This document shows positions 13,684 through 31,715 of a stretch of DNA of 64,000 nt, in pieces. A program made the position numbers and the translations under genes. Under the pieces are notes generated by a model that saw only the letters and a list, made by a program, of their open reading frames with translations, had not been told where the DNA came from and did not search any database. Position 1 is the stretch's first letter. Each line of letters opens with the position of its first letter. Source of the DNA: a virus (lineage: Duplodnaviria > Caudoviricetes); the IMG/VR virus record IMGVR_UViG_3300028048_000052, positions 111,155-175,154 of that record; one strand, 5' to 3'.

Positions 13684-14424
13684 GTGCCAAAATTAATTGA
13701 TTTGACCGGGAAAAAATTTGGAAAACTTATTGTAAAAGAAAGAGCACCAAATAAAAATAACCAAGTATGTTGATTATGTAAATGTGATTGCGGGAATGAA
13801 GTAATTGTCACAAGAAGAGAATTATTAACTGGACATACTAAATCGTGTGGGTGTTATCGTAAAGAGATTACCGCAAAAAGAAATAAAGAAATAAAACCTA
13901 AAAAATTAGATGGGTTAAGATTTGGCAAATTAACTGTTTTAAAGCCAACTGAATTACGAGATACAAATGGCGCAATAATTTGAGAGTGTGTTTGTGATTG
14001 TGGAACACATACAATGGTTCGTGGAAATTTATTAGTTAATGGAATGATACAGAGTTGTGGATGTGTAAAATCACAAGGAGAACAAAAAATTATTGACATT
14101 TTAAAAAAATATGATATAATTTATGAAAAAGAAAAAACTTTTGAAACATGCCGTTATCCAGAAACAAATTTCTTATGTCGTTTTGATTTTTATGTTAATA
14201 ATAAATATTTAATAGAATTTGATGGTGAACAACATTTTAAAAAAAGTAAATATAATAATAGTTGAAATACAGAACAACATTTAAAAGAAACTAAAATGCA
14301 TGATGAATATAAAAATAATTGGTGTAAAGAAAATAATATCCCATTAATTAGAATTCCTTACAACCATTTAAATGAATTAAAAATAGAAGATTTAATGTTA
14401 GAAACAAGTAAATTTGTTATTTAA
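13684..14424 (+). CDS. Free-standing homing endonuclease, Cys-rich repeats + Vsr/DUF559-like nuclease (3 TGA=Trp)
   Basis: AGGAGG RBS + GTG; DLTGKKFGKL, TGA-LCKCDCG, TGA-ECVCDCG, RFDFY, IEFDGEQH; same architecture as 6127-6825. Confidence 0.8.
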
Positions 14425-14442: not shown

Positions 14443-16173
14443 ATGAAATATATAATGCGTGGAGATTGAAATGAAAATAATAAAACTGCGCTTGTACGGG
14501 TTTTATTGAATAGGGGAATGAAAGAAGAAGATATTGAGCATTATTTAAATACAACAGACGATGATTTAATTGACCCATCCTTAATTGAAAATATACAAGA
14601 AGGCACTCAAATGCTTTTAAAACATATTAATGCCAACAATGATATTTATATTCAAGTAGATTCAGACGTTGATGGTTATACAAGTTCAGCCATTTTAATT
14701 AATTACTTGTATAAAGCATATCCAGATTTTGCTAAAACGCATATTACCTATGGTCTTCATGAAAATAAAGAACATGGTATTGATATGGATGCTATTAAAG
14801 ATAATATTAAATTAGTTGTTGTCCCAGATGCTGGATCAAACGAATTTGATTTACATGCTGAACTTAAATATAATGGGATTGATGTATTAATTATAGACCA
14901 CCATAACGCAGAGGGCTATTCTGATTATGCGTGCGTAATTAATAATCAAATTGGTAACTACCCGAATAAAGATTTATCTGGGGCTGGCATGGTTTATAAA
15001 TTTTGTTGCTATCTTGATAAATATTTAGGTTTTGATTTTGCAGATGATTTTATTGATTTGGCGGTGTTTGGGATAATCGCTGATGTAATGCCACTTACCA
15101 ATTTTGAAACAAGAAGAATGATTGTTAAAGCAATAGATAATTTTAGAAGTCCATTTTTAAATGTTCTTGCTTCAGCTAATAGCTTTCAAAGTGGAGTTCA
15201 AATAGTTCCAAAGACATTCTCTTGGACTATGGCGCCAGCAATAAATGCTATTTGTAGAATGGGTAATTTAGAAGATAAAAAAATTGTATTTGAAGCAATG
15301 CTTGAAAAAAATAGCGAATTAGAAGTTCCATCAACCAAAAGAGGGCACAAAGGTGAAACAGAGTTATTAATTGAGCAGGCGGCAAGAGTTGCTAAAAATG
15401 TTAAAGCTGGACAAGACAGAGCAAGAGATAAATTATGTGAACAGTTTGAGCAATTAATTAATGATAAAAATTTACTTGAAAATCAAATCTTGGCTCTTAA
15501 AATGCCAGATTCAACCCAAGAGGATAGAAATATAACTGGGCTTGTTGCTAATAAATTAATGAGTAAATATCAAAGACCAGTTCTTGTACTGAGTAAAAAA
15601 GTATTAGAAGATGGCTCGGTTCATTGGGCCGGCTCTGGCAGAAATGGCGGAGATGGGTTAATTAGTTTTCAAAAATTCTTAATAGATTCAAATTTAGTAG
15701 ATTGGGCACAGGGGCACGACAATGCATTTGGCGTTTCTATTCCCGATGAAAATTTCTCTGCTTTGATACAATATGGGAATAAAGAATTGGCTAACTTTGA
15801 TTTTACTCCAAAATATAAAATAGATATAGTATATTATGGGACAAATATCGATATTGGTGATATTGCTTCTATTGCTGATAATAATGATTTATGGGGAGAG
15901 GGTCTTGAAGAACCGAAGATTCTTATAAAAGATTTACCCATCAATTCAGCGCTTGCTGATATATCACCGAGAGGTTATTTTAAAATATCACTTGGATCTG
16001 AGTTAGATATTGTTAAAATGCGAATGGATTTTGATGAGTTTGATAAAATTATAAAAGGACCAAATAGTAAATTAGATATTATTGGAACTTGTTTCCGTAA
16101 TGTTGGGTTTGGCGATGGTTTACAAATTAGAATTGAAGATTATGAATTAAAAACACAGCAATGGTATTTTTAA
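14443..16173 (+). CDS. recJ: RecJ-like DHH ssDNA exonuclease (576 aa; single TGA at codon 9)
   Basis: DSDVDG, PDAG, IIDHH, GSGR, GHDNAFG. RBS-preceded ATG at 14443 is in frame through TGA 14467. Confidence 0.85.
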
Positions 16174-16786: not shown

Positions 16787-17958
16787 ATGGAACTTACAGT
16801 AAAACAACAGGAAGCTCTTACGCTTGCTGTTTCTCGCTATGTCAATGGAGAAGCATACACATGTATTAGCGGGTATGCTGGAGTTGGTTAGGTAAAACAA
16901 CATTGATTAGTTTCATTATTTCCGCTCTTGGATTACAACCATGGGAAGTTTGCTATATTGCCTATACCGGTAAGGCAGCGCTGGTATTAAAAAGCAAGGG
17001 ATGCGAAAATGCCATGACAGCACATAGATTGTTATATATTTCTCATCCAAAAGCAGATGGAACTTTCTTTCATATGCCACGAAGACCTTTACCACCTTAT
17101 AAAATAATTGTATGTGATGAGATATCAATGTTACCAAAAGATATGTGGGAGCTTCTTTTATCTCATCATATTCATGTTATTGCGCTTGGAGATCCGGCCC
17201 AATTACCTCCTATCACAGAAGATAATGGGGTATTGGCAAATCCGCATATATTTTTGGATGAAATCGTACGTCAAGCCCAAGATAATGAAATCATTAAATT
17301 GAGCATGGATATTCGTGAAGGAAAACCTTTACAATTATTCAATGGTAACCAAGTTAAAGTAATTGATAAAAAAGATTTAAAATCGGGAATGTATACTTGG
17401 GCTGATCAAATTATTTGTGCTAAAAATGAAACACGACGCCAAATAAATGAGTATATGCGTGAAATGACATTGGGTATGAAAACACCCGACCCAGTGGAAG
17501 GTGATAAAGTCATCTGTTTAAAAAACGATTGGGATAGTATGAACGCTTATGGAGATATGTTAGTTAATGGCACCATTGGAACTATTTCTTATATTCGATA
17601 TGATGATAATAATAAATATTTAAAACCCCATGTTGAATGGGATTTATTACCAGATGGTTATATCCCATCTGAGTGTGCTGAAGATCCATATTTTAGAGAT
17701 TTGAATATTGACTATAAATTATTAACAACTGGTGAACCAACAGTTACACAAAAAAATTTTAGAAAATTTCCTCAAATTTGGAAACCAAAAGAATTTGATT
17801 ATGGTTATTGTATTACCTGTTGGAAAGCGCAGGGTGATCAGTATAATAAAGTATTATTATTTGAAGAGGGATTCCCTTTTGAGCCAGAAGAGCATAGAAG
17901 ATATCTCTATACTGGTATTACAAGAGCAGTTGAAAAATTGGTAGTCGTAAGGAAATAA
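16787..17958 (+). CDS. RecD2/Dda-like SF1B helicase interrupted in Walker A by a 5-nt insert (388 aa if bypassed)
   Basis: RBS + ATG 16787 gives ...ISGYAGVG then TAG. Skipping 16889-16893 gives GYAGVGKTTL. Downstream AYTGKAA, DEISM, GDPAQL, TCWKAQG, YTGITRA are intact. Confidence 0.8.
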
Positions 17959-20759: not shown

Positions 20760-20798
20760 AATGGGTGGGGCTTAGGGCTCCACCCATTGATTTTTTTT
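20760..20798 (+). terminator. Intrinsic terminator overlapping the dnaE promoter
   Basis: AATGGGTGGGGC...GCTCCACCCATT hairpin followed by a T run. Confidence 0.75.
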
Positions 20799-20815
20799 AT
20801 AAAATATGATATAAT
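20787..20815 (+). promoter_or_regulatory. Sigma-A type promoter with extended -10
   Basis: TTGATT-17 nt-TATAAT with TG. Confidence 0.7.
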
Positions 20816-20856
20816 ATAAATGTAAAAATAGGAAGAAAGTGAGGTGATATAGAATA

Positions 20857-23800
20857 ATGAGAACATATTTTGGAGCACATAACCATACTCATTATTCCTA
20901 GGTAAGTCCAATTTGCGACTAATTGATTGTATCAATAAACCAAAGGATTTAATTAATAAAGCAATAGAGTTGGGGTTATCTGGTATCGCTATAACTGATC
21001 ATGAAAGTTTATCCGCAGGGATGGAAGTTAATCAATATGCAAAAAAGATTCACGAAAAAAATCCTAATTTTGTTATTGCATTAGGTAATGAAATTTATTT
21101 AACAGATGATAGAAGTAGTGGGCAGAAATATTATCATTTTATTATAACAGCAAAAAATAAAAGAGGTTATAGAGCATTAAAAGAATTAAGTTCAATCGCT
21201 TGGTATAATATGTATAGTGATAGAGGTATGGAAAGAGTTCCAACTTTAAAAAGCGAATTGAAAGAGGTAATGAAAAATTATAAAGGTGATGTAATAGCAC
21301 AAACTGCTTGTATTGGTGGTGAATTATCTCAATTAATTCTTGAAATGGAACATGCGAGAGAAATTAATGATAAAGAGAATGCGAATACATCTTATTTAAA
21401 GATTAGAGAATTTATTGATTTTTGTATTGATGTATTCGGCAAAGATGATTTTTTTATTGAGTGTGCGCCAGCGAATAATCCCGACCAGATTAAAGTAAAC
21501 AAGAAATTAATTCAAATAGCGAAAGTTTATGGATTAAGAATGATATTTGCGACAGACGCACATTATTTAAGACCAGAAGATAGAAGTGTTCATAAAGCAT
21601 TTTTAAATTCAAAAGATGGCGAAAGAGAAGTTGATGAATTTTATCAATATTCATATTTAATGAATAGTGATGAAGTTGAGGAATTATTAAGTTATAGTTT
21701 TGAAAAGAAAGATATAGATTGGTTATTTGAAAATACTTTATATTTACAAAATAAGATAGAAAATTATAGTTTAGAAAAACATCAAGATATTCCAGAAGTA
21801 AAAGTTAAAGATTATCCAAAAGTAAACAAGAAAGAAGAATATGCGGTTTTATCAAGTTTATATAACTCTGATAATATTCAAGAAAGATATTGGATTAATC
21901 AATGTGAAGAAGCATTAATTCAAAAAGGTTTAGATAAAGATAAAAGGTATTGGGATAGATTAGAAGAAGAAGCAACAACAAAAAGAATTGTTGGTGAGAA
22001 ACTTCAAACTTGTATGTTTAGTTATCCAAATACTTTACAACACTATATTGATTTGTTTTGGCGTTGTGGTTCAACGGTTGGCGCAGGAAGAGGTTCTGCG
22101 TGTAGTGGATTAAATCATTATCTGTTGGGTATAACTCAGTTGGATCCGATTAAATGGAATTTGCCGTTTTGGAGATATTTGAATCCAGAACGAGTTGAAT
22201 TAGGTGATATTGATTTGGATTTGGCGCCAAGTAGATTACAAACAATATTTGAAGAAATTAGAAAAGAAAGGGGAGAACTTGGTTTAGTTCAAGTTTGTAC
22301 TTTTGGAACAGAAGGTACAAAATCAGCAATTCAAACAGCTTGTAGAGGTTATAGAAGTGTTGATTATCCCGATGGTATAGATGTAGATGAAGCACAATAT
22401 TTATCATCGTTAATTCCAGTAGAAAGAGGATTTCAGTGGAGTATTAATGATGTTATAAATGGAGATGCGGAAAAAGGCAGAGTGCCTGTAACTCAATTTA
22501 TAAATGAGATTGAACAGTATCCGGGATTATTAGATATTGTCAAAGGCATTGAAGGATTAGTAAGTAGAAGAGGAAGTCATGCGTCGGGTGTAATTTTATT
22601 TGATGAAAATATTTATGATGATGCAGCGATTATGAGGACTCCATCTGGGGCGATTGTAACTCAGTGGGATTTACATATGCAAGAAGCCGCAGGTTCAGTT
22701 AAATATGATTTCTTATTAACATCAGTTCAAGATATTATTATTGAAACGATTAATCTTTTACAGAAAGATGGTAAGATTGAAAAAGATTTAACTTTAAGAG
22801 AAATATATAATAAGTATTTACATCCAGAAGTATTACCGCAAGATGATAATAAAATGTGGGATGCATTAGCAAATGGAACTGTTATAAATTGTTTCCAATT
22901 TGATAGTGCAGTTGGTTCTCAGGCAGCGAAAAAGATTAGACCTCATACGCCAATGGAAATGGCGGATGCTAATGGTTTAATGAGATTAATGGCAGCCGAG
23001 AAAGGCGCAGAAACTCCATTAGATAAATATGTAAGATTTAAAAATAATATTAATTTATGGTATCAAGAGATGAAGAAATGGGGATTAACCGAAGAAGAAA
23101 TGAAAACGGTTGAACCATATTTTAAATCATCTTATGGGGTACCACCATCACAAGAACAATTGATGATGATGTTAATGGATAAAAATATTTGCGGATTTGA
23201 TTTAAAAGAAGCAAACGCGGCGAGAAAAATCGTTGGTAAAAAACAGATGGATAAGATTCCAGAGCTTCATCAAAAAGTATTAGACCAAGCCAAGAGTAAA
23301 GCGTTAGGTAAATATATTTGGGCACAAGGTGTTGGCCCGCAGATGGGTTATTCATTTAGTATTATTCATGCATTAGCATATTCATTTGTTGGTATGCAAA
23401 CTTTATATTTAGCGACTCATTTTAATCCAATTTATTGGAATACGGCGTGTTTGATTGTTGACAGTGGGTCGTTAGAAGAAAGTAGTGATAGCACAAATTA
23501 TAGAAAGATAGCGATAGCGATTGGTAAAATGAGAAAAGCTGGTATTAATATTAGTTTAGTTGATATTAATAAGTCAGGTTTTGGATTTGAACCAGATGCA
23601 GAAAATAATAGAGTGTTATTTGGATTAAAAGCGGTAATGGGTGTTGGCGATGAAGTCACGAATAAAATTATTGAGAATAGACCTTATAGTTCAGTAAATG
23701 ATTTTATTGAAAAAGTTAATCCAAATAGGACAGCGATGGTTGCATTAATAAAAGGTGGAGCGTTTGATGTATTAGAGCCAGATAGAATCAAATGTATGAA

Positions 23801-24716
23801 AGATTATATTTGGGAAACTTGTGATAAGAAAAAGAGATTAACGATGCAGAATTTAGCGGCGTTAATGAAATATAATTTGTTCCCAAAGAATAAATATAAA
23901 CAAGAAAAAAGAGTTTATGAATTTACAAGATATTTAAAAGCAATGTGTAAGTTAGATAAAGAAACTTACAAACTTGATGACAGATGTATTAAATTCTTAA
24001 CTGAAATTGAAAGTGATGATTTAATAGAACAGAATGATAAGAATGAGTTTATATTAAAAGCGAAAGATTGGGATAAGGTTTATCAATTTAATATAGATAG
24101 TTTTAGAGATTATATTAATAGCCATAAAGATGAATTATTAGATAAGTTAAATAATATTATCTTCAATGAAGATATGGAAAAATATGCGAAAGGAAATATT
24201 TCATCTTGGGAAATGGAAACATTATGTTTCTATTATCACGATCATGAATTAATAAATGTTAATAATGATAAATATGGTTTAGTTGATTTCTTTGATTTAG
24301 ATACAGAACCAGAAGTGGAAAGAACTTATACAACAAAAACTGGGCATAAAGGAAATATATTTAAGTTATCAAAGATTGCGGGAACCTGTATCGCGAAAGA
24401 TAAAATAAGGTCAACTGTATCATTATTAACGGTTAATGGTGTTGTTGATGTTAAATTTAGAAAAGAATATTTTAGTTTATTTGACAAACAAATATCTGAA
24501 AGAATGCCAGATGGGACGAAACATGTGGTTGAAAAATCTTGGTTTAATAGAGGCCAGATGATTATAGTTCAAGGATTTAGAAGTGAAGATAATTTTATTC
24601 CAAGAAAATATGGAAATCAAGGTCATCAGTTATACAGAATAACAAATATTGATAAAGATAATAATTTAATGATTCAAACAGAAAGATATAATGGCGGTTT
24701 TGATGAAGAAAATTAA
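20857..24716 (+). CDS. dnaE: DNA polymerase III alpha (family C) interrupted in the PHP motif by an 11-nt insert (1282 aa if bypassed)
   Basis: GAGGTG RBS + ATG 20857 gives MRTYFGAHNHTHYS then TAG. Skipping 20899-20909 gives HNHTHYS-NLRLIDC. Downstream AITDHE, GAGRGS, DIDLD, HASGV, KYDFL, YSFSIIHA are intact. Confidence 0.9.
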
Positions 24717-24798: not shown

Positions 24799-27700
24799 AT
24801 GATGAAATATGTGATTAAACGAGATGGGCGAAGAAAGGATTTCAATGAGGCAAAAATTGAAGCGGCTATTTTAAAAGCATTTATTGCGGTTGACGGTGAA
24901 GCAACAGATTACGCAAAAGAGAAAGCAAAAAATATAGCTGATTATATTAATAATTTAGAACAAGAAGAATTAACAGTTGAGGAAATCCAAGATTTAGTAG
25001 AAAAAGGATTAATGAGCTGTAAAAGAAAAGATGTTGCAAAAGCCTATATTCTTTATAGAGAAGAAAGAAGCAAAGAAAGACAAAGAAAAACAAGATTAAT
25101 GGGCGTTATTAAAGAAAAATTAGATGCCTCTAATGTTGTTAATCAAAATGCTAATGTAGATGAGCACTCTTTCGGCGGAAGAAAAGGTGAAGCAACAAAC
25201 GAACTGATGAAGCAGTACGCCCTTGATTATTGCGTATCTGAATTATCAAGAAATAATCATTTAAATAATGAAATCTATATTCATGATTTAGATAGTTATG
25301 CTGTTGGTATGCATAATTGTCTTACAATCCCATTTGATAAATTATTAGCAGAAGGATTTAATACAAGACAAACTGATGTGCGCCCTGCTAGCAGCGTAAA
25401 TACTGCGTTTCAATTGGTAGCTGTAATTTTTCAATTACAATCATTACAACAATTTGGCGGTGTTAGTGCTAGTCATTTAGATTGGACTATGGTTCCATAT
25501 GTCAGAAAGAGTTTCTTTAAACATTGGCGAGATGGGCATAAATTTTTATTAAATGATAATGATGCAGATAACTTAATATTTTTTGCAGATAAGTCAATTG
25601 ATGATGAATATTATAAAGATGGTGCTTATGAATATGCTATGGCTATGACACAAAGAGAGTTAGACCAAGCTGTTGAAGGCATGTATCATAATCTTAATAC
25701 CCTTCAATCAAGAAGTGGTAATCAATTACCTTTTACCTCAATTAACTATGGTACTTGCACATTGCCAGAAGGAAGAATGGTTATTAAATCATTATTAGAT
25801 AAATCTATTGAAGGCGTTGGCAAAGTTAGAAAAACTCCAATTTTCCCTTGTGGAATTTTCCAATGCATGAAAGGCGTTAATAGGAAACCGGGAGATCCTA
25901 ACTACGATTTATTCCAGTTAGCCTTAAAATCAACTGCTAAGAGATTATATCCAAATTATGCCAATATTGATTGGAGCAATAACGCTGGATATGATATAAA
26001 TGATCCAAAAACTTATTTTAGCACGATGGGTAAGCGAAACTTAGCTCATCTAAAATCTTTTGAACCACGCTCGTGGGTGTTCGCTTAAAGCGAGCTAACG
26101 GTTAGGCCCCTCTGGGGTGAGACCGTGCTAAGATTTATCATAATACTCATATTGGAGAAAATATGTGAGTATATAAAATTACAAATATTCAAAATAATAA
26201 AGTTTATATTGGTCAAACAATAAGACCAATAGAGCAAAGATTTAATCGTCATATAAATGATGCATTAAACAATATATTAGATACTCATTTTGCAAGAGCG
26301 ATTAGAAAATATGGCAAAAACAATTTCAAAATTGAAATTATTGACATGGCTCAAACGCAAGATGAATTAAATAAAAAAGAACAATATTGAATTAAATATT
26401 ATAATTCTACTATTGATGGTTATAATGAAACGGATGCTATTTCTAAATGCGGTGGTAATACTTATAAAAGTAAAACTTTAAAAGAAATGGCAGATATAGA
26501 AGAAAAAATACGAAAAACAAAAATAGGAAAATTAAATCCTATGGCTCGTAAAATTAAAAGAATAGATGTTAATACCAATGAATTTGAAATTTATGATACG
26601 ATAATTGCTTGTGCAAAAGCTTGTGGTATAAAAAATGGGAAAACATCTATTTCGCAAAGATTAAATGGGAATATAAAAACACCCTATAAAGATAAATGAA
26701 TATTTGAGTATTATGATAAATAAAGTGTACAGACTATCCCTGATGAATGTAAGGGAGTAGGGGTGGAGATAAGCACCACTCCGAAGCGGAAGACTACTTA
26801 ATAGTAGAAGATATAGTCGGTACCAATGGTAACATTGGAAAAATACGTGCAGAACGGCAAATGGCGCTGATATTAATGCAGAACCGGGCACAAACCCACA
26901 AACAAAAGATGGTAGGGGAAATATATGCCCTGTTACCATTATTTTACCAACATTAGCAATGGAAGCAAAAGAAATTTCCGGAGATACTGTTGATAATTTC
27001 TTTGATATTTTAGAAAGAAAACTTGTTGAAGCAAAAGATATGCTTATCGAAAGGTATGAATATATCTGTTCTCAAAGTCCAGAAAGTGCAAAGTTTATGT
27101 ATGAAAATGGTACAATGTTAGGATACCACCCAGAAGAAGGAATTCGAAGTGCATTAAAGCACGGTACTCTTGCTCTTGGTCAATTGGGCTTGGCTGAAAC
27201 TTTACAAATTTTAATTGGTAAAGATCATACAACAAAAGAAGGCATGGATTTAGCAAAAGAAATTGAGGAATTGTTCCAAAAGAGATGTGCAGAATTTAAA
27301 CAAAAATATCATTTAAATATTGGTGTTTATTATACTCCTGCTGAAAACTTATGCTATACAGCAATGAAAAAGTTTAAAGCAAAATATGGGGAGATTCCAA
27401 ATGTAAGTGATAGGGAATATTTTACAAATTCAATTCATGTTCCTGTTTGGGTAAAGATTGACCCATTTACTAAAATTGATATTGAAAGTCAATTAACTGG
27501 CTATTCAAATGCTGGTTGTATCACTTATGTTGAATTAGAAGGCACGGCTGGTAATAACCTTGACGCATTAGAACAGTTAGTTAATTATGCCATGGATAAA
27601 GATATCCCTTATTTCGCAATCAATGTTCCAAATGATACTTGTCTTGACTGTGGTTATACCGGCGAATTTAATGATAAGTGTCCTGTTTGCGGAAGCACCC

Positions 27701-27831
27701 ATATCCAACAGTTAAGAAGGGTTACAGGGTACTTAACTGGTAATTATACAACGGCATTTAATCTTGGAAAACAAGCCGAGGTTCATGATAGAGTAAAACA
27801 CTCAGAGCAACTCTCAGATTGGAGACGATAA
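24799..27831 (+). CDS. nrdD: Anaerobic (class III) ribonucleotide reductase with ATP cone, two exons (24799-26031 + 26848-27831, 738 aa)
   Basis: VIKRDG ATP cone; IYIHDLD; splicing restores the catalytic TMG|CRT; PAENL, YFTNS, RRVTGYL glycyl-radical motif. Confidence 0.92.
26032..26847 (+). mobile_element. Group I intron in nrdD
   Basis: Exon ends ...GGU and intron ends ...ACG; P7 elements CAGACTA (~26730) and GAAGATATAGTCG (~26806); removal restores the frame. Confidence 0.88.
26163..26723 (+). CDS. Intron-encoded GIY-YIG homing endonuclease (3 TGA=Trp, first at codon 2)
   Basis: GGAG RBS; M-TGA-VYKITNIQNNKVYIGQT, RAIRKYG, EQY-TGA-IKYYNS, GYN. Confidence 0.8.
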
Positions 27832-31409: not shown

Positions 31410-31715
31410 TGGCAGGGGGCGAAGGACTCGAACCCTCATAGCCGAGGTTGGAGCTCGGTTCGCGGTTTTGCGTACCACTGCAATTTTCATTGCCCTTGCG
31501 GTTTGTGGTCTGGACTATATCTTCACCATATATCTCTACTTAGGTGGCTGATTATCTAGTCTCTACGGGCCAAATTACTCTGTTCCCTCGGTGTTACCAG
31601 TTAAGGATTCACCGATATCATCAGCTCCACTATTACTGTTTCCAGTAATAGGCTCCAATTGAGTAAAATTACTCTTTTTAAAGACCGATTCCGTTCCCAA
31701 CGGTGAAAACCCCCT
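31410..31715 (-). tRNA. Intron-containing UGA-decoding tRNA (anticodon UCA, probably Trp); exons 31715-31681 and 31470-31410; 96 nt mature
   Basis: Acceptor AGGGGGU/GCCCCCU, discriminator G, encoded CCA. T arm GAGGG-UUCGAGU-CCUUC. Anticodon arm CGGU-CUU|CAAA-ACCG. Variable-arm stem CCGAG/CUCGG. Confidence 0.85.
31471..31680 (-). mobile_element. 210-nt ORF-less group I intron between anticodon positions 34 and 35
   Basis: Follows U and ends in G; P7 elements GAGACUAG and GAAGAUAUAGUCC; internal guide UUGGAG pairs with the ligated CUU|CAA with U.G at the splice site. Confidence 0.85.

Follow-up and report, generated by a model that had tools for sequence, protein, structure and literature searches.

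The dnaE gene of a 175-kb uncultured phage, its sole replicative DNA polymerase gene, is split after codon 14 by 11 nt. As judged from comparison with relatives, this gap is probably crossed by a short translational bypass, in which peptidyl-tRNA-Ser would leave a UCC codon and re-pair at the next UCC. The site lies in a window of 64,000 nt, which is the whole stretch of phage DNA that was analyzed, and all features given below are located on the plus strand. The phage is represented by a single metagenome-derived record, which is rated 100% complete, and no second sample was found to contain the exact 11-nt gap of the window.

The upstream permease operon ends with a terminator-like hairpin and T-run (20760..20798; 13-bp stem with seven GC pairs). 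A promoter-like site, TTGATT-17-TATAAT with an upstream TG, is present at 20787..20815, and its motif has 11 further copies in the genome. A strong Shine-Dalgarno sequence, GAGGTGAT (20841..20848), positioned inside 14 nt that are missing in the uninterrupted relative L005, serves a mini-ORF of 14 codons, MRTYFGAHNHTHYS (20857..20898, ATG at 20857-59), which bears PHP motif I (H-x-H). The last codon of the mini-ORF, TCC (20896-98), is the candidate take-off codon and is directly followed by TAG. The 11-nt coding gap, TAGGTAAGTCC (20899..20909), opens with UAG (20899-901), contains a Shine-Dalgarno-like AGGU (20900-03) and has at its 3′ end the candidate landing codon, a TCC (20907-09) matching the take-off codon. 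The dnaE frame resumes with NLRLID from AAT (20910-12) and comprises 1268 codons (20910..24716, the stop ending at 24716). This long frame is -1 relative to the mini-ORF, is open from 20883 and has a TTG at 20913. It encodes the rest of the PHP domain followed by DNA_pol3_alpha, finger and HHH_6, a domain order pointing to a YorL-like phage DNA polymerase III alpha (DnaE), and PHP profile positions 3-9 are provided by the mini-ORF alone. TAG is a genuine stop in this code-4 phage and terminates 40 of 186 ORFs; neither a phage-encoded tRNA-Ser(GGA/UGA) nor an unusual "hopper" tRNA was found. The preliminary description of this DNA had reported a ribosome-binding site and ATG, a mini-ORF ending in TCC-TAG, a second TCC 11 nt further on and resumption of the dnaE frame at AAT, all of which was confirmed from the sequence.

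Deletion of 20899-20909 restores HNHTHYS-NLRLID, and the joined protein aligns colinearly and gap-free with SPbeta YorL and with about 100 relatives. The alignment with homologous phage dnaE genes that had been proposed as a check thus gave colinear joined frames, and the nearest relative, L005, whose protein is 98% identical, lacks exactly 11 nt: in the DNA alignment the window has exactly 11 extra bases at this place. Two relatives with 86% identity carry 11-nt gaps at the matching position (TAGATAGGTCT and TAAATAGGTCT). These gaps and that of the window have diverged at 4 of 11 positions, yet both the stop codon and a Ser codon for landing are retained. In total, 28 distinct gap types with lengths of 5-14 nt were found in related phages at one S/N boundary, among them TAACC, TAGTCT, TAGGTCT, TGATGTCT, TAGTGGGTCT and a 14-nt hairpin type. 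All 28 open with a stop codon (TAG in 16, TAA in 8, TGA in 4), a feature that was not imposed by the search for those loci found via homology; since common descent links part of the gap types, they do not count as 28 independent trials. The landing codon is TCN (Ser) in 22 gap types, and the other six (ACC, ACT, TTT twice, GCT twice) match Ser UCN at two of three positions and are near-cognate only. The gap length modulo 3 is 0 in 5 types, 1 in 12 and 2 in 11, and two of the five in-frame types have TAA.

These data bear on an alternative in which ribosomes undergo a -1 frameshift at UCC-UAG or immediately ahead of it. Leu would then be decoded from C-UA in the A site, and the PHP loop would be longer by four residues (...HTHYS-LGKS-NLRLID), with a junction peptide ...HYSLGKSNLR, whereas a hop predicts TYFGAHNHTHYSNLR. 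The -1 frame is indeed open from 20883 across the gap in the window and likewise open in L006 and L007, shifting is known to be stimulated by an A-site stop codon, and natural insertions of one residue are seen at this position in L040, L043 and P0117. Yet the stretch ACT CAT TAT TCC TAG has no slippery heptamer X XXY YYZ, and tRNA-Ser would be unable to re-pair at UUC. Moreover, the same site in the relatives would need a +1, -1 or zero shift. The frame class is not conserved, since L220 has a 13-nt gap and L210 a 14-nt gap although their proteins are 98% identical. In the 13- and 14-nt gaps a resume-frame TAG stands immediately 5′ of the landing codon, and therefore shifting by +1 or -1 at the stop codon is unworkable there. 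A frameshift also gives no reason for Ser as the last gap codon in 22 of the 28 types, and the would-be gap residues vary non-conservatively (G/D/N, K/R). We therefore consider a -1 shift to be quite improbable.

A second alternative is termination at UAG and restart at TTG 20913, aided by AGGT (20900-03). It would yield a free 14-residue peptide and a DnaE starting at Leu16, without residues 1-15 and hence without the metal ligands of H-x-H. An AGGT-N9-TTG arrangement is present at the dnaE gap and recurs with the same spacing at the helicase site described below, and some relatives have a resume-frame ATG or GTG in the gap (TGATGTCT, TAATGTCT, TAGTGTCT, TAGGTGTCA), TAGTGTCT being the gap of L226, which stems from the assembly of a Lachnospiraceae isolate. 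In favor of a restart it also counts that not every DnaE PHP domain requires its metal ligands, that of E. coli DnaE being an example. Against it stands the loss of the H-x-H motif: H8, H10, S14 and N15 do not vary in the dnaE family, and the first His was retained by each of the 22 confirmed family members of a pattern scan in which this His was not required. The mini-ORF with its own Shine-Dalgarno sequence and ATG is retained in every interrupted lineage, the TTG start is not conserved (TTA in L006, ATA in L007), and most gap types have no start codon. At the helicase, a TTG start would delete the Walker A lysine. Reinitiation at TTG 20913, which the preliminary description had offered as an alternative, thus fares badly, and we assign it a low probability.

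Small frame breaks in about 90 homologous genes of about 1280 codons each were found only at residue 14 or, in one lineage, at residue 19, and this concentration is not due to chance. Dozens of assemblies, independent of one another and made from different samples, show the interrupted design. Both observations argue against a dead or defective allele, or an assembly artefact of 11 nt, in which case full-length enzyme would not be made. Such an explanation draws on the genome being a single metagenome-derived record, but the remaining 1268 codons are intact in a record rated as complete, and a random error would not twice give the same genome a stop together with a matched codon. It appears very unlikely to us. 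Near-identical DNA was not found in cultured phages, and the interruption is absent from all of the best 60 cultured-phage homologues. A viral scan without a required stop codon gave noise among the matches listed. N-termini of the type MIVNKYAKE..., considered as further interruptions, were rejected, as most of them are missed TTG starts (L011, L013).

It was also considered that the 11 nt might be removed or ignored in the RNA, whether through a micro-intron, through editing or through transcriptional realignment. Nothing direct speaks for it, apart from the presence of GTAAGT and the palindrome CCTAGG in the gap TAGGTAAGTCC. No Rfam family matched at the site, nor anywhere in the window at the gathering score, a homopolymer run for transcriptional slippage is absent, and matched codons and a stop would serve no purpose in splicing. 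We know of no self-splicing intron of 5-14 nt. This explanation is extremely improbable. A group I intron in particular was rejected: the insert has 11 nt, whereas the catalytic core with its P3-P9 helices takes about 200 nt or more. The "vestigial group I intron" proposed earlier is unsupported, because Rfam finds nothing at the site.

With respect to stimulatory elements, no take-off hairpin in the element of the window was better than those of shuffled controls (z=+0.94; fraction 0.31), and the consensus fold of 46 interrupted sequences (RNAalifold) contained 0 pairs. Stem-loops were found in other lineages (L190, L191, L206, L210, L220), and in some lineages an 8-bp hairpin holds the take-off codon in its loop or atop its 5′ arm and shows compensatory changes between lineages.

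Taken together, the comparative data support a bypass as the reading that fits them better than any rival, with 28 gaps at one boundary that are all stop-first, 22 Ser TCN landing codons and three frame classes. They thus support the bypass proposed in the preliminary description; its qualification as "programmed" is still conjectural, and a search of the window's element for a stimulatory structure gave none. The hop itself and its efficiency are what we infer from these alignments. Ribosomes would start at ATG 20857, read 14 codons and stall there, UCC 20896-98 being paired with peptidyl-tRNA-Ser and the A site being occupied by UAG, a stop specific for RF1. In some of them the peptidyl-tRNA would unpair, the mRNA would slide by 11 nt and the same tRNA would re-pair with UCC 20907-09. 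Decoding would be resumed at AAU 20910, leading to a single DnaE chain with the intact PHP motif HNHTHYS-NLRLID. Non-hopping ribosomes would release the 14-residue peptide, so that the gap would also throttle DnaE output.

A gap site of the same design was found in a gene for a RecD-like helicase (16788..16893). Here, a 33-codon ORF ends with GGT (16886-88) followed by TAG; the gap has 5 nt (TAGGT), and the landing codon GGT (16891-93) matches the take-off GGT. The codons AAA ACA ACA after the landing GGT rebuild the Walker A motif GYAGVG-KTT, and by its sequence GGT-TAG-GT in Walker A would work by hopping only. A genome-wide scan (G000) for more junctions of a stop and matched codons recovered the helicase site, the remainder being noise. 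A Walker A pattern scan for helicase gaps gave matches due to chance only.

An HNH or homing-endonuclease ORF was located directly upstream of dnaE in 13 of 41 interrupted but only in 4 of 68 uninterrupted contexts (p=6e-4), a comparison open to bias because interrupted loci came mostly from the pattern search and uninterrupted ones from the protein search. The PHROG HNH or homing-endonuclease matches in the relatives reached down to 1e-48; the endonucleases of the relatives include an HNH type in L006 and a further type in L227. In the window, no homing endonuclease gene is present between the permease gene and dnaE, and genes of the PHROG families seen in the relatives are located elsewhere (13684-14424). 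The insert of the window is spanned by a divergent patch of about 270 bp (20790..21060) with 55-78% identity to L005/L008, the flanks on both sides showing 98-100%. We read this patch as a gene-conversion tract. Its nearest interrupted allele is L006 with 85% identity, and this was the best match among the fetched loci, none of which was an exact donor. As far as these identity values can tell, the insert most likely arrived in this genome via gene conversion. It is probably a scar or an immunity mark of the traffic of homing endonucleases at the dnaE 5′ end, the role in immunity being one that we infer.

Several features of the dnaE site are reminiscent of T4 gene 60, for which a 50-nt bypass with a mobA HNH homing-endonuclease cassette is described in the accounts cited here (Bonocora 2011, cited in bioRxiv 10.1101/2022.08.31.505936; PMC5009743) and whose relatives have wobble-matched codons and UAG or UGA (bioRxiv 10.1101/2022.08.31.505936). 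Common to both are a stop, mostly UAG, after the take-off codon, a take-off hairpin (in some dnaE lineages) and probably an association with free-standing homing endonucleases and spread by gene conversion, and the position of the insert in the roughly 270-bp conversion patch parallels the situation of gene 60 and mobA. The differences concern the interrupted gene, which is the PHP motif region of dnaE here and the large subunit of topoisomerase II there, and the gap length, 5-14 nt versus 50 nt (20 in Aeromonas phages). They also include the nascent peptide, which has only 14-22 residues at take-off, so that a KKYK-type tunnel signal cannot operate, and the window, where the gap has no stable hairpin and no homing endonuclease gene adjoins dnaE. 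With no stable hairpin and a nascent chain of just 14 residues at take-off, the element of the window is devoid of the known gene 60 stimulators. No homology of the dnaE element to the MobA element was seen. Membership in the homologous gene 60/MobA family was rejected in view of the host gene (a PHP-domain Pol III alpha), the 11-nt gap, the lack of an adjoining homing endonuclease gene and the 14 residues before take-off.

In the terminase of Streptomyces phage Hau3, 10-nt inserts are bypassed at a slow A-site codon, and the junction peptide was detected by mass spectrometry in E. coli after replacement of UUA by UAA (PMC10732093). As at the dnaE site, an essential phage gene carries a block of about 10 nt, and a slow A-site codon and a landing codon followed by resumption are involved. 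In Hau3, however, the slow codon is UUA, a rare sense codon linked to the supply of bldA tRNA, and not a true stop as in dnaE, gene and host phylum are different, and a link to homing endonucleases is unreported. The mitochondrial "byp" elements of Magnusiomyces capitatus, as summarized in a review, have 27-55 nt, occur in many genes and place an unassigned codon in the A site (PMC5009743). They too are many short inserts skipped in translation, with take-off and landing codons that do not always match perfectly, but are scattered over many sites of one mitochondrial genome rather than confined to one hotspot in dnaE. For E. coli, synthetic +5/+6 hops and stop-hops (work from Weiss et al., 1987, onward) are presented in that review as laboratory constructs of low efficiency (PMC5009743). 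In these, peptidyl-tRNA re-pairs at a nearby cognate codon over a stop, across distances equal to the 5-11-nt gaps of dnaE. Unstimulated hops of this kind are inefficient, and the gap of the window has no stable take-off hairpin. In the L081/L082 lineage, a 1-nt insert five codons downstream in dnaE gives exactly CTT TGA C, the +1 frameshift site CUU UGA C of prfB (RF2), with an HNH gene alongside. Unlike prfB, it has no upstream Shine-Dalgarno sequence, and both site and mechanism are distinct from the 11-nt gap of the window.

To our knowledge, natural bypassing is limited to a few systems, namely T4 gene 60 and its relatives, one yeast mitochondrial lineage and one Streptomyces phage terminase. 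Gene callers truncate or mis-start the interrupted polymerase genes, and therefore phage annotation pipelines miss the catalytic N-terminus. According to the 2016 review, short-distance counterparts of bypassing were long expected but not found, and a natural use of in-frame stop hopping was not known (PMC5009743). The dnaE site offers dozens of natural minimal-hop variants differing in gap length, stop, landing codon and presence of a hairpin, and hence a ready mutational series for the minimal requirements of the ribosome in hopping. It is a speculative and rather unlikely possibility that the stop-hop is a regulatory device beyond a tolerated scar: with RF1-specific UAG hops in dnaE and the RecD-like helicase of a phage that reads TGA as Trp, hop efficiency and replisome output might track release-factor activity or the timing of a genetic-code switch, and homing-endonuclease arms races may repeatedly create minimal bypass sites without a dedicated stimulator. 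The dnaE site suggests that bypassing is a recurrent evolutionary response to homing-endonuclease attack on essential genes.

The 5′ end of dnaE in the window consists of a mini-ORF with the codons MRTYFGAHNHTHYS, which starts at ATG 20857, is preceded by a promoter-like site and a strong Shine-Dalgarno (SD) sequence (GAGGTGAT), and ends with the Ser codon TCC (20896-98) followed by TAG. The gap TAGGTAAGTCC (20899-20909) separates it from the remainder of the gene, for which the gene caller set an ORF of 1267 codons in the -1 frame, starting at TTG 20913. The strong RBS with ATG, the TCC-TAG end, the second TCC and the resumed frame of about 1270 codons, which had been named in the preliminary description, are all present in the sequence. 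Its proposal that the PHP motif is rebuilt across the gap was also borne out, as deletion of 20899-20909 fuses HNHTHYS with NLRLID, ungapped as in relatives. An AT-rich promoter-like element upstream of dnaE (20784-20841) has 11 further copies in the genome with 79-96% identity, which probably form a phage promoter family.

The encoded protein is a YorL/SPbeta-type Pol III alpha subunit with the domains PHP, DNA_pol3_alpha, finger and HHH_6. The N-termini of its relatives follow the ungapped pattern M..YF..H.HT.YSN.RL.D, in which H8, H10, S14, N15, R17 and D20 are invariant. The Pfam PHP profile matches from position 3 in P0006, the protein of the nearest uninterrupted relative L005, and from position 10 in the TTG-started ORF, so the mini-ORF is the sole source of the H-x-H metal-ligand motif, which corresponds to LHQHTQFS in an alignment with Taq Pol III alpha. 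With 1282 residues, P0006 (98% identical) has exactly the length predicted for a product of bypassing (14+1+1267). The alignment with homologous phage dnaE genes, suggested at the outset as a check, showed relatives that are either ungapped or split at the same boundary, and the DNA of L005 lacks precisely the 11 nt.

Gap variants were collected by protein-homology searches and DNA-pattern searches of viral, metagenome and genome collections. Gaps of 11 nt, as in the window, split the same boundary in two relatives with 86% identity: TCC-TAGATAGG-TCT in L006 and TCC-TAAATAGG-TCT in L007. A 68% relative, L012, has TCT-TAAA-TCT. In total, the searches yielded 28 different gap sequences, 5, 6, 7, 8, 9, 10, 11, 13 or 14 nt in length, all between Ser and Asn codons. 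The first gap codon is a stop in 28 of 28 types (TAG 16, TAA 8, TGA 4); the DNA-pattern searches demanded T-R-R after the Ser codon, but the immediate stop is also present in loci found by homology alone, which are free of that demand (the window, L006, L007, L012, L027, L073 and L384). The codon at the 3′ end of the gap is TCN in 22 of the 28 types, and the other six (ACC, ACT, TTT twice and GCT twice) each share two of their three bases with a Ser UCN codon. When about 90 homologous genes were surveyed with tblastn, small frame breaks occurred at residue 14 only, except in one lineage at residue 19 (L081/L082). The break in dnaE is a genuine feature, with a design conserved much more widely than chance would allow.

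Several individual loci deserve mention. In L081 and L082 (1380-1600 in both), a 1-nt insert five codons 3′ of the hop site creates CTT TGA C, an RF2-type +1 site, and in this lineage dnaE is directly preceded by an HNH gene of the L006 type. For L384 (1501-1540; protein P0018), the caller chose a resume-frame TTG inside the mini-ORF, giving the spurious N-terminus MKFTHTLITRRS; the true layout is MEMIMSSSRFEVHAHTHYS-TAG-GTCT-NIRLID. The dnaE of L010 (2799-3806), otherwise unbroken, carries roughly 1 kb of extra sequence at residue 436, which is probably an intron or an endonuclease element.

Of the mechanisms considered, a short stop-hop has the best support and is quite probably the one used at the dnaE gap: the peptidyl-tRNA-Ser would re-pair at the downstream Ser or near-cognate codon. 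Judged from the sequences, such re-pairing would be the sole model fitting all gap variants. A -1 shift is possible for the window allele, where this frame is open back to 20883, but a slippery heptamer is absent. Moreover, gap lengths fall into all three frame classes (modulo 3: 0 in five types, 1 in 12, 2 in 11), and the proteins of L220 (13-nt gap) and L210 (14-nt gap) are 98% identical over 350 residues, so a mechanism shifting in one direction could not serve both. The 13- and 14-nt gaps also contain a TAG in the resume frame immediately 5′ of the landing codon (TAG-TCA or TAG-TCG); a ribosome that shifted by ±1 at the first stop would run into this inner TAG and terminate, and only landing 3′ of it would work. 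In five gap types the length preserves the frame; two of these have TAA, a codon for which readthrough or reassignment is not known. Restart at TTG 20913 is likewise possible in the window allele; however, this codon is replaced by TTA in L006 and by ATA in L007, and only a minority of types have a resume-frame start codon in or just after the gap. Restart would also forgo the H-x-H motif encoded by the mini-ORF alone, which is retained together with SD and ATG in every interrupted lineage; its first His is present in 22 of 22 confirmed family members, though not demanded by the first search pattern.

The virus record (175,154 bp, rated 100% complete, GC 33%; the window covers 111155-175154) was also analyzed for its genetic code. 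When TGA was read as Trp, ORFs of ≥100 aa in the whole genome summed to 53.4k residues instead of 39.0k, which fits a code-4 phage. TAG terminates 40 of 186 ORFs and is therefore a genuine stop. ARAGORN found nine tRNAs, all outside the window, plus a call at 64519-65162 of the genome that is either tmRNA-like or an intron-containing tRNA-Lys(UUU). Within the window neither a tRNA (ARAGORN) nor an Rfam family was found, leaving the intron-containing suppressor tRNA previously suggested at 31410-31715 unconfirmed.

RNA folding differs between lineages. In L190 and L191 the 10-nt gap gives rise to an 8-bp hairpin whose tetraloop holds the take-off UCU and whose pairs vary compensatorily (ACUUGUUA/UAGCAAGU vs ACCCAUUA/UAGUGGGU), and the 13/14-nt gaps fold as GCUACUCC-UAGR-GGRGUAGU. 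Randomisation of gap interiors gave a combined p of 1.5e-6 (16 sequences). The window element folds no better than shuffled controls (z=+0.94), and a single consensus fold over all 46 sequences was not found. The take-off hairpin is thus an optional enhancer, and the window represents the minimal form.

A second site breaks the Walker A motif of a RecD-like helicase (16788-16905). There, GGT (16886-88) is followed immediately by TAG, and after a 5-nt gap ending in a matched GGT (16891-93; GGT-TAGGT-AAA) the codons AAA ACA ACA restore the Walker A sequence GYAGVGKTT. The helicase of a 96% relative, L251, reads GYAGAGKTT without interruption, and restart at TTG 16903 would lose the P-loop lysine. 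A search revealed no large family of gaps at this site. A distant helicase relative, L260 (355-415), has an 8-nt TAA-led insert in Walker A one codon earlier (GCA-TAAGAGTA-GGT), with take-off codon GCA and a merely near-cognate landing codon, GTA.

Interrupted dnaE alleles are dispersed across the DnaE tree, whose 118 leaves require no fewer than 17 changes under parsimony. ORFs directly 5′ of interrupted dnaE genes match PHROG endonuclease families (HNH, homing or intron-encoded), reaching E-values as low as 1e-48, and Pfam matches are weaker. Among distinct interrupted contexts, 13 of 41 have such an ORF adjoining dnaE upstream, vs 4 of 68 contexts without interruption (p=6e-4 by Fisher's test, the two sets being sampled by different routes). 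In the window, no endonuclease gene adjoining dnaE was found. The ORF at 13684-14424, 246 aa long and with three TGA codons in frame, matches the same PHROG families (HNH/homing endonuclease, E 3e-37) and is closely followed by a 576-aa ORF (14443-16173) earlier called recJ. The nrdD gene (24799-27831) is split into an N-part (24799-26088, Pfam profile 2-265) and a C-part (26959-27831, 296-562), separated by an ORF for a GIY-YIG endonuclease (26163-26723) that contains three TGA codons; Rfam detected no group I intron there at gathering score.

Compared with uninterrupted L005 and L008, the window is 98-100% identical on both flanks and 55-78% identical across 20790-21060, where L006 is the closest match. 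This patch appears to be the footprint of a gene-conversion tract that delivered the gap and the stronger SD. Within it, 14 extra nt (20826-20850 vs L005:2975-3000) create the SD, the site in L005 being weaker and purine-rich; the stronger SD may offset inefficient hopping.

A description of dnaE bypassing was not found in the literature. Most similar are gene 60 with its relatives, the Hau3 terminase, and the mitochondrial byps and synthetic stop-hops, the last two as presented in PMC5009743. Relatives of gene 60 use wobble-matched codons, UAG or UGA, and in one clade a gap down to 20 nt (bioRxiv 10.1101/2022.08.31.505936), and the terminase of Streptomyces phage Hau3 contains a 10-nt bypass whose junction peptide was detected by mass spectrometry in E. 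coli (PMC10732093). In T4 gene 60/mobA, the gap guards against the endonuclease (bioRxiv 10.1101/2022.08.31.505936). The dnaE case parallels that system in its endonuclease link and in gene conversion, and by this analogy we infer that the dnaE gap would confer immunity against a homing endonuclease.
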